DNA of 64,000 bases from an uncultured Microthrixaceae bacterium. GTDB lineage: Bacteria; Actinomycetota; Acidimicrobiia; Acidimicrobiales; VFJN01. Location of the stretch: NCBI GenBank assembly GCA_963750645.1, contig CAVVRO010000008.1, positions 535,594-599,593 on the forward strand, given 5' to 3'. The notes under the pieces were generated by a model that made no database searches, was not told the origin of the DNA, and saw only the letters and a list, made by a program, of their open reading frames with translations. The translations under genes were made by a program, and so were the position numbers. This document shows, one piece after another, positions 17,521 through 19,889 of this stretch. Position 1 is the first letter of the stretch. The number at the start of each line of letters is the position of its first letter.

Positions 17521-18774
17521 GTGGCTCTGGTCGTCCAGAAGTTCGGCGGCACGTCGGTCGCCGACCCCGAGCGCATCCGCGAGGTCGCCGACCACGTCGC
17601 CCGCACGCAAGCGCCGTGGCAACGACGTGGTGCGTGGTCGTCAGCGCCATGGGCAAGGAGACCGACGAGCTGCTGCGCCTCGCCTCCGAGGTGTCCGACG
17701 ACCCGCCCCGGCCGCGAGATGGACATGCTGCATCACGGCCGGCGAGCGCAAGGCCACCGCGCTGCTGTGCATGGCGCTCGCACGACCTCGGCGTCGACGC
17801 CGAGTCGTTCACCGGGCAGCCAGGCGGGGTTCATCACCGACACCACCCACACCAACGCCAAGATCGTCGAGGTGCGGCCGACCGCATCCGCGACGGCCCT
17901 CGACGCCGGGCACGTCCCGGTGGTCGGCGGCTCCCAGGGCGTGTCCGACCGACCGCAACGTCACCTTCCTCGGTCGCGGCGGCTCGGACACCACCGCGGT
18001 CGCGCTGGCCCACGCGCTCGGCGCCGACGTCCTGCGAGCTCTACACCGACGTCTCCGGCGTGTTCACCAGCCGACCCCCGGGTCGTGCCCGACGCCCGCC
18101 GCATGGAGCGCGTCAGCTTCGACGAGCTGCTCGAGATGACGCGCCAACGGCTGCCCGAAGCCGGCCATGCGGTCGGTCGAGTTCGCCCGCACCTACGGGC
18201 GTCGACCTGCACGTCCGCTCAGCGTTCACCTGGGAGCCGGGCACCTGGGTCACGAGGAGGACGACGACATGGAGCAGGCCATCATCTCGGCGGTCGTCCA
18301 CGACACCGACGAGGCCAAGGTCACGGTCGCCGGGGTGCCCGACCAGCCCGGCATCGCCGCCCGCCTGTTCCGGCTCCTCGCCGACGCCGACATCAACGTC
18401 GACATGATCGTGCAGAACACGTCGGAGCACGGCGTGACCGACATCTCCTTCACCGTCCCCCACGACGACCTCGACCGAGCCACGAGATCACCGTCGGCGC
18501 TCGGCCGCGGAGATCGGCGCCACCGGGGTGCACCAGCGACGGCGACATCGCCCGGGTGAGCGTCGTCGGCGCGGGCATGAAGTCGAACCCGGGCGTGGCC
18601 GCCACGGTGTTCGAGACCCTCGCCGCCGCCGGCATCAACATCGAGATGATCTCCACCTCGGCGATCCGGATCAGCTGCGTGGTGCGCCGAGGCCCAGGTC
18701 GAGCAGGCCGTGCAGGCCCTCCACGACGCCTTCGAGCTGAGCGCGTCAAGGGCGGCTCCGCCCCCTTCGCATGA
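17521..18774 (+). pseudogene. ask: aspartokinase (alpha/beta), disrupted by many 1-nt indels (or a sequence-quality artefact)
   Basis: The start [19 protein letters not shown] is intact. Later canonical segments are scattered over all three frames: [99 protein letters not shown] and others. The internal beta-subunit start ATG 18269 ([12 protein letters not shown]) with RBS gaggagga is still visible. The 3' end is approximate. Confidence 0.85.
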
Positions 18775-18835
18775 CCCCCGATTGCGCCGCCATAAGGCTT
18801 TGGGCCTCGTGGAGCGACGCCGTAGCCTGTCGTCC

Positions 18836-19889
18836 ATGCGCATCGGAATCGTTCGGGGCAACCGGTCAGGTCGGCGGGGTCATGCGCCGCATGCTCGCCG
18901 AGCGGGCCAGTTCCCCGTCGACGAGCTCCGGCTGTTCGCCTCGGCCCGATCCGCCGGGCGGACGCCTGGGCTTCGGCGACGGCGAGATCGAGGTGGAGGA
19001 CGCCGAGACCGCCGACTACGCCGGCCTCGACATCGCGCTGTTCTCGGCCGGCGCCACCGCCTCCCGGGCGCTCGCGCCCCGGGTCGCCGAGCCGCGGGCG
19101 CGATCGGTCATCGACAACTCCTCGGCCTGGCGCATGGACCCCGACGTGCCGCTCGTGGTGCCCGAGGTCAACGCCCACGACCTCCGGTCGCATCCCCAAG
19201 GGCATCGTCGCCAACCCGAACTGCACGACCATGGTGGCGATGCCGGTGCTCAAGCCGCTCGACCTCGAGGCCGGCCTGCGCGCCATCGTCGTGAGCACCT
19301 ACCAGGCGGTGTCGGGCGGCGGGCCTCGCCGGGATGGCCGAGCTCGACGAGCAGGTCCGCAAGGTCGGGCGACGACGCGGCCGCGCTCGCCCTGTCGACG
19401 GCACCGCGGTCGACTTCCCGCCCGCCGAGCAAGTTCCCGACGACCGATCGCCTACAACGTCATCCCGCACGCCGGCAGCTTCGTCGACGACGGGCTCGCC
19501 GAGACCGACGAGGAGCAGAAGCTCCGCAACGAGAGCCGCAAGATCCTCGGGCTCCCCGACCTGCTCGTGTCCGCCCCTCTGCGTGCGCGTCCCGGTGTTC
19601 ACCGGTCACTCGCTGTCGATCAACGCCCGGTTCGAGCGCCCGCTGTCGCCATCTCGCGCCGAGGAGATCCTCGCCGCGAGCGACCGGTGTCGAGGTGAAC
19701 GACGTGCCCACCCCGCTCGGGGTCACCGGTGGCAACGTCACCCAGGTCGGCCGCATCCGCCTCGACCCGACGGTCCCGGACGGTCACGGCCTGGCCCTGT
19801 TCCTCTCGGGCGACAACCTCCGCAAGGGCGCGGCGCTCAACGCGGTCCAGATCGCCGAGATCCTCCTCTCCGGCCGCCACGCCTGCTGA
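18836..19889 (+). pseudogene. asd: aspartate-semialdehyde dehydrogenase, disrupted by many 1-nt indels (or a sequence-quality artefact)
   Basis: Segments [156 protein letters not shown] and LFLSGDNLRKGAALNAVQIAEIL lie in different frames. Confidence 0.85.

Follow-up and report, generated by a model that had tools for sequence, protein, structure and literature searches.

The window analysed here, a 64-kb stretch of DNA from an uncultured Microthrixaceae bacterium, carries adjacent genes for aspartate kinase (ask) and aspartate-semialdehyde dehydrogenase (asd), neither of which can be read in a single uninterrupted frame. The locus raises the question of whether the organism has lost these two genes, or whether only the deposited sequence is broken. 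A preliminary description had favoured a local consensus of low quality, such as an unpolished patch, and had named very recent real inactivation as the alternative.

Frame structure of the ask–asd segment

We mapped the reading frames by three-frame translation, by GC3-phase segmentation and by frameshift-aware protein-to-DNA dynamic programming against intact orthologues. All three methods agreed that the canonical segments of Ask and Asd follow one another in the right order while hopping between frames, with about 19 changes of frame in ask and 13 in asd. In the three-frame translation and the GC3-phase segmentation, the coding phase switches every 40–330 nt across approximately 17.6–19.7 kb, as against frame segments of 500–2700 nt elsewhere in the window, with the exception of a second patch at 30.2–35.8 kb. 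The density of frame changes in ask–asd is far beyond chance. The window has a base composition of 70.9% G+C and contains no N. The genes and the frame-breaking events lie as follows:

17521 (GTG) to about 18772, plus strand: ask, monofunctional aspartate kinase with two ACT domains, about 19 breaks in the frameshift-aware alignments
near 17607, 17632, 17697, 17731, 17779, 17814, 17895 and 17947, plus strand: single extra bases in ask
near 18029, 18069, 18141, 18196, 18493, 18503, 18530 and 18687, plus strand: further single extra bases in ask
near 17878, 18251 and 18473, plus strand: missing bases in ask
18836 (ATG) to a stop at 19887–19889, plus strand: asd, aspartate-semialdehyde dehydrogenase, 13 breaks, extra bases every time
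near 18851, 18965, 19104, 19191, 19321, 19366, 19428, 19445, 19573 and 19679, plus strand: single extra bases in asd
18909, 19088 and 19393, plus strand: double extra bases in asd
17607 to 19685, no strand assigned: first patch (Patch 1), a putative chimeric consensus spanning about 2.08 kb, about 32 frame-breaking events, 1 per approximately 65 bp, and sharp edges

In ask we counted 19 events, of which 16 are single-base additions and 3 are omissions of a base. As no in-frame stop is present in ask in the sequence as given, at least one further event must lie within 18735–18772, and the true stop is placed only to the range 18735–18774. Of the 13 events of asd, 10 add one base and 3 add two; the outermost events of the patch are found at 17607 and at 19679–19685. 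These counts agree well with the preliminary description, which had reported the frame hopping of ordered segments, roughly 18–20 changes in ask, at least 8 in asd and a predominance of +1 switches; indeed, 26 of the 32 events are single extra bases. Three of the insertions that it gave as examples (gtggtgCgtgg, ctgCatcacg and gttCgggg) were verified, and the first event is placed a few bases upstream of its fourth, gcgcCgtggc, at acGCaag.

The genes bordering the patch are undamaged:

16985 to 17488, plus strand: BldD-like XRE regulator (Pfam PF21179 and HTH_31), intact, left border of Patch 1
19937 to 20215, minus strand: MazG-like gene (Pfam PF03819), intact, right border of Patch 1

All genes between 3.9 and 17.5 kb, as well as the next gene downstream of the patch, aligned to their orthologues in one frame. 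The flanking XRE and MazG-like genes had been described as intact, and they are; the intact start of ask measures 87 nt and not the 93 nt given before. An identical copy of the XRE regulator protein is found on an independent Logan contig. Logan contigs of ERR12035935 that encode identical flanking proteins end at approximately 17568 and resume at approximately 20111, just outside Patch 1. Exact-sequence look-up of the MazG-like protein and of two frameshift-chimeric ORFs returned no record. There is no second copy of ask or asd within the 64-kb window, and Rfam and tRNA scans gave nothing bearing on ask–asd. GC3-phase segmentation had also raised a suspicion of frameshifts at 27.6–29.0 kb and 43–46 kb, where, however, a P450 gene and a 1066-aa ORF turned out to be intact.

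The repaired proteins

We compared the repaired proteins with those of relatives, drawn from 80 loci of Acidimicrobiales or Microthrixaceae-like MAGs, all with ask in a single frame. Repaired Ask has no mismatch at the 176 columns with a conservation of at least 95% (64 relatives), and repaired Asd has none at 127 such columns (43 relatives), which amounts to 0 of 303 conserved columns changed in the two proteins combined. The relative-rate difference was −0.013, that is, without acceleration. The relaxed selection by which a truly decaying pseudogene would be recognized is therefore not seen, and the absence of amino-acid decay between the indels, pointed out in the preliminary description, is borne out.

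Repaired Ask consists of an AA_kinase domain (positions 2–233 of 234), followed by ACT_9, ACT_7 and ACT, and scores above the cut-offs of the curated equivalog models NF005155 (542 bits, cut-off 346) and TIGR00656 (403.7, cut-off 402.25). In repaired Asd, the Pfam domains Semialdhyde_dh and Semialdhyde_dhC are both full length, the catalytic cysteine motif (A)NPNCTT is present, and the protein passes NF011456 (476 bits against 223) and TIGR01296 (424 against 324). It aligns end-to-end with Asd of M. tuberculosis (PDB 3tz6; residues 2–339, E = 1.5e-136). About 32 indels without one damaging substitution are unlike the product of mutation.

These results bear on the possibility that ask and asd are true, very recent pseudogenes, broken by a burst of single-base insertions in an organism that obtains lysine, DAP, threonine and methionine by means of a second copy or from the community. 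The frameshifts are, after all, present in the deposited sequence; ask–asd is also broken on a related contig, and two of the frameshifts are common to the window and an independently assembled relative (L083). In addition, no near-identical intact Ask was among the best 120 matches, sorted by E-value, in a search of 5.8 billion proteins, where the top match was 87% identical, and short identical or intact fragments may lie outside these 120. However, to acquire about 32 indels with 303 conserved codons unchanged and without acceleration, the genes would need a burst of insertions only, free of substitutions. Bacterial pseudogenes are generally reported to be deletion-biased, and the bias of approximately 10:1 towards insertions runs in the opposite direction. 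Furthermore, of two contigs that diverge by 11%, each has mostly events that the other lacks, and the substitutions between such contigs show purifying selection. Nor would a mutational process yield inserted bases that are relatives' alleles, and the identical signature is found in the unrelated genes of Patch 2 (both described below). We therefore consider very recent inactivation, the alternative named at the outset, to be highly improbable. The same holds for a real loss of ask and asd in an uncultured Acidimicrobiales population with two of the lesions inherited by a sister lineage, a loss which, if true, would mean auxotrophy for DAP, lysine, threonine and methionine.

It could also be imagined that the frame is restored at each site by programmed recoding, through ribosomal frameshifting or transcriptional slippage. 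Nothing speaks for this beyond the fact that each segment stays recognisable. The approximately 32 sites have no common slippery motif and are not conserved (80 of 80 relatives have a single-frame ask), +1, +2 and −1 changes are all present, and the unrelated genes of Patch 2 show the same pattern. The probability of such recoding is negligible.

The extra bases and the alleles of relatives

We analysed the nature of the indels and their relation to variation among the relatives. Insertions predominate in Patch 1 by about 10:1: 26 events add one base and 3 add two, as against 3 in which a base is missing. For 14 of 25 single extra bases, extension of a homopolymer is impossible, as they differ from both neighbours; the other 11 occur in homopolymer context at no more than chance level, and 24 of the 25 are G or C. 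Indel errors of the homopolymer type, known from long reads, were thus rejected as the source.

In a multiple alignment with close relatives, the tandem bases proved to be two alleles that occur among the relatives at the same site, as in CTG[C/A]TC, CT[C][G], GG[G][C], [G][A]CC, [A][G]CC and AC[G][C]. Nucleotide alignment of this kind had been proposed in the preliminary description as a check. Of the 28 insert columns private to the window, 20 (71%) have as their extra base the relatives' alternative allele at the adjacent column. Random insertions that were re-aligned in the same way gave such a match in 165 of 633 cases (26%; binomial p = 6.7e-7). At 30 of 30 junctions the residues on either side occur in relatives, compared with 80% for simulated random insertions (p ~0.001–0.004). 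The double insertions can be read as common supersequences of two codon variants, for example:

18909 to 18910, plus strand: two extra bases in asd, where GCCAG is the common supersequence of GCC (L083 type) and CAG (L002/L013 type)

Similarly, TCGACGGC is a double-insertion supersequence that unites TCGGGC and GACGGC. The missing bases are likewise located on variant sites. Synonymy of the tandem pairs (approximately 27 of 32; null approximately 0.69) is only in marginal excess, and we do not rely on it. We found no description of consensus errors with both alleles in tandem in a literature search.

We took as clade-diagnostic the sites at which one base is common to L083, L001, L003, L005 and L006 (A-type) and another to L002 and L013 (B-type). 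Of the window's bases at 115 such sites, 61 are A-type and 50 are B-type, with about 40 switches between them in 2.3 kb, whereas leave-one-out controls from the A clade have 116 A-type against 4–10 B-type bases each. The pairwise identities do not fit a tree either: the window is 0.891 identical to L083 and 0.801 to L002, but L083 and L002 are only 0.756 identical, so that the window is 4–5 points nearer to L002/L013 than L083 or other members of the clade are. Of the 247 differences between the window and L083, L002/L013 share the window allele at 72% and that of L083 at 38%, while in control pairs this sharing was about symmetric (46–63% per side). The mosaic and the non-tree-like distances suggest that Patch 1 blends two divergent haplotypes and is not the sequence of a single lineage. 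The L083 allele is found in every informative tandem pair, but as much is expected by chance, so that the pairs do not bear on whether the second haplotype is simply L083-like.

These observations allow one to weigh generic long-read consensus errors, which would arise in a patch of low coverage or one left unpolished, with insertions that are random or driven by context and unrelated to variation in the population. Frameshift errors are known in Nanopore soil assemblies (PMC13087279; PMC9262707), the damage is limited to patches with clean flanks, and occasional +1 events are seen among long-read relatives: asd is broken in only two of the 80, L015 and L057, which are contig_N-style long-read MAGs, and in both the extra base is within a C run. 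However, generic errors would explain neither the match to alleles (71% against 26% for random insertions) nor the uniformly clean junctions where 80% are expected, and the enrichment in homopolymers is absent. Noise of the kind found in raw reads should also have given some substitutions on the 303 conserved columns, and random noise does not yield a clade mosaic or non-tree-like distances. Finally, a 2-kb hole in coverage is unlikely with reads longer than the patch. Generic errors thus seem to us an unlikely, though the least unlikely, alternative to a blend of two haplotypes.

Further evidence comes from contigs related to the window. L083 (ENA ERZ25039524 contig_12819) is syntenic with the window and 89–100% identical to it, with 91–95% identity over 10.3–20 kb and 98–100% over 20–30.7 kb. 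It carries extra-base frameshifts of its own, 6–7 in ask and 3 in asd, most of them at sites other than those of the window. The errors of both contigs fall in the block of 5–9% divergence, with nearly none in the block of 98–100% identity. An apparent third patch at 26.3–26.5 kb in the comparison with L083 was an artefact of overlapping alignment ends. Only 2 of the approximately 32 events are common to the window and L083, the remainder being private to the window, and L083 has 9–10 of its own. The shared events are:

17731, plus strand: extra base common to L083, CTG[C]ATC, where C and A correspond to the first codon position of the relatives' Leu CTC and Ile ATC
19679, plus strand: second extra base common to L083, GCCGCG[A]GC

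These two bases could be real mutations that were inherited. The perfect conservation of both genes despite 11% nucleotide divergence, however, argues for recurrent artefacts at the same polymorphic sites. Two observations go against a chimera of haplotypes: only 5 of the 13 private insertions of L083 coincide with relatives' alleles, which is not significant, and of the 10-kb block in which the window diverges from L083, only 2.1 kb is affected in the window.

The same signature recurs in the second patch, in genes unrelated to ask and asd:

30205 to 35800, no strand assigned: Patch 2, second frameshift-dense stretch with the same extra-base signature, hopping in the same direction
within Patch 2, minus strand: AAA_16/GerE LuxR-type regulator, frame-broken
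33403 to about 34850, within Patch 2: DHA2-type MFS transporter, frame-broken
within Patch 2: alpha/beta hydrolases, frame-broken

On a contig 91% identical to the window (L081; ENA ERZ25039603 contig_16294), the genes of Patch 2 are broken too, at other positions. The MFS gene carries 9 private extra bases in the window and 3 others in L081. The substitutions between the two copies of this gene are distributed over the codon positions as 70/26/9, a pattern that indicates purifying selection.

A probable two-haplotype consensus and its likeness to known systems

Taken together, the comparisons with relatives suggest that Patch 1 is very probably a chimeric consensus of two divergent haplotypes, an artefact of assembly and not a loss of genes. 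The errors lie on polymorphic sites, where the extra base is the other allele; the patch alternates finely between two sets of alleles, and its distances do not fit a tree; and the errors are confined to divergent blocks and recur in related assemblies (L083 and L081). The consensus artefact proposed in the preliminary description is thus supported, by the lack of decay, the predominance of insertions and the related contigs, but in place of a generic unpolished patch we propose a chimera of two haplotypes.

The most likely origin of such a chimera is that, during assembly or polishing, homologous reads or graph paths of two related genomes or strains living together were fused. One haplotype would be like the close relative L083, and the other would carry alleles typical of the L002/L013 clade. 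For most variant positions the caller would have settled on one allele, hence the fine mosaic; at about 30 sites it would have written the two alleles side by side, with a shift of +1, or of +2 if the codons differ at two positions; and at 3 sites it would have written neither, giving −1. Both parental genes would be intact and functional, which may explain why the peptide segments are conserved while the frame hops. It is possible that both alleles are written at a balanced variant site when the consensus model penalizes a mismatch more heavily than a deletion in a read. The source would presumably be a metagenome assembled from long reads by a pipeline such as Flye followed by a polisher, with the collapse occurring at an inter-genome repeat or a recombinant tract, and the reads would be expected to resolve into two intact haplotypes.

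Judging from the sequence, it is almost certain that the breakage of ask–asd is not a biological feature and that the organism possesses a normal ask–asd operon. No auxotrophy or gene loss should be deduced from this record, in which automatic annotation would call ask, asd and a further approximately 5.5 kb of genes in the window pseudogenes or fragments. Patches of this kind may be recognized from the sequence alone by dense, insertion-only indels outside homopolymers, by extra bases that are relatives' alleles, by double insertions in which two codons are combined into one supersequence, and by a mosaic of clade-diagnostic alleles. The signature could serve to flag or repair such patches in long-read MAG collections.

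Pseudogenes with multiple frameshifts are well known from the reductive genome of Mycobacterium leprae. The window resembles these in that recognisable genes are cut by many frameshifts. Real pseudogenes, however, accumulate substitutions at conserved sites and have a reported deletion bias, whereas ask–asd has 0 of 303 conserved columns changed, a bias towards insertions and relatives' alleles as the inserted bases.

A closer likeness is to the frameshift truncation of genes in long-read assemblies, as detected by IDEEL-type tests, where single-base indels in the consensus likewise make apparent pseudogenes; it is seen especially in complex soil metagenomes and Nanopore-only MAGs (PMC9262707, PMC13087279, PMC12313526). 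Soil assemblies from Nanopore reads have more such truncation than HiFi assemblies (PMC13087279), and the MAG collection to which many of the relatives belong is based on Nanopore reads alone, assembled with Flye and polished by a single Medaka round (PMC12313526). Classical long-read errors, however, are scattered, associated with homopolymers and often deletions, in contrast to those of Patch 1, which are dense, approximately 10:1 insertions, mostly outside homopolymers and on polymorphic sites.

The patch is also like the collapse of strains or haplotypes by Flye, in whose consensus contigs related strains, and even species, are merged (PMC8302730). In both cases one consensus would stand for two divergent homologues, which in the window takes the form of a mosaic of two allele sets. 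The literature on strain collapse describes the collapse itself and the loss of identity, whereas the signature of both alleles in tandem is deduced here from the sequence.

With respect to the genes themselves, ask and asd are adjacent in most of the 80 Acidimicrobiales loci, and the window's ask–asd matches the actinobacterial lysC–asd operon of Corynebacterium and Mycobacterium in gene order, domains and full-length similarity. After repair nothing biological differs from that operon; only the deposited sequence is broken.

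Flanks of the ask-asd patch and the ask 3' end

We compared the genes flanking patch 1, the frameshifted ask-asd stretch at window 17607-19685, with contigs assembled independently from run ERR12035935 (Logan contigs). These encode proteins identical to those of the flanking window genes, stop at about 17568, 40 nt ahead of the first frameshift, and resume at about 20111, about 430 nt past the last one. Such contig ends are consistent with branching of the assembly graph over the patch. Directly upstream of ask lies a regulator gene:

16985-17488, BldD-like XRE protein (PF21179)

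Its 90% cluster has 71 members, and the XRE-ask arrangement is also present in two relatives, L082 and L083 (ENA ERZ25039524 contig_12819, a close syntenic relative).

The 3' end of ask (18735-18774) has no in-frame stop. L083 reads CTG TAG at the ask end and the window CTG AG, so that one base of the stop codon itself seems to be missing from the window; further indels lie in the same short tail.

Similarity to L083 and its own damage

Identity between the window and L083 is 91-95% upstream (10.3-20 kb) and 98-100% downstream (20-30.7 kb), changing sharply at about 20000. This step suggests a recombination boundary or, alternatively, mosaic relatedness of the two assemblies. Compared with the window, L083 has about 120 extra-base events of its own in the part matching window 11.5-19 kb. 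These truncate not only ask-asd but also the BldD-like XRE gene and a peptidyl-prolyl isomerase gene, and the public contig is thus more damaged than the window.

Other frameshifts and RNA genes

We also noted another stretch dense in frameshifts, at window 30205-35800, with the following broken genes:

within 30205-35800, minus strand, large AAA_16/GerE (LuxR-type) regulator
33403 to about 34850, DHA2-type MFS transporter
within 30205-35800, alpha/beta hydrolases

Single extra bases are the main cause of breakage in all genes of this stretch. The regulator and MFS genes are likewise split in a 91%-identical relative, L081 (ENA ERZ25039603 contig_16294), but at positions different from those in the window.

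Rfam and ARAGORN scans of the whole window found nothing besides one tRNA gene:

39512-39588, minus strand, tRNA-Pro (CGG)

No short-read MAG of the compared set has a frameshift in asd. Two long-read MAG contigs, L015 (3088; MFD09267.bin.1.261) and L057 (12021; MFD09779.bin.3.232), each carry one extra C inside a C run of asd, and these are frameshifts of the ordinary homopolymer type.
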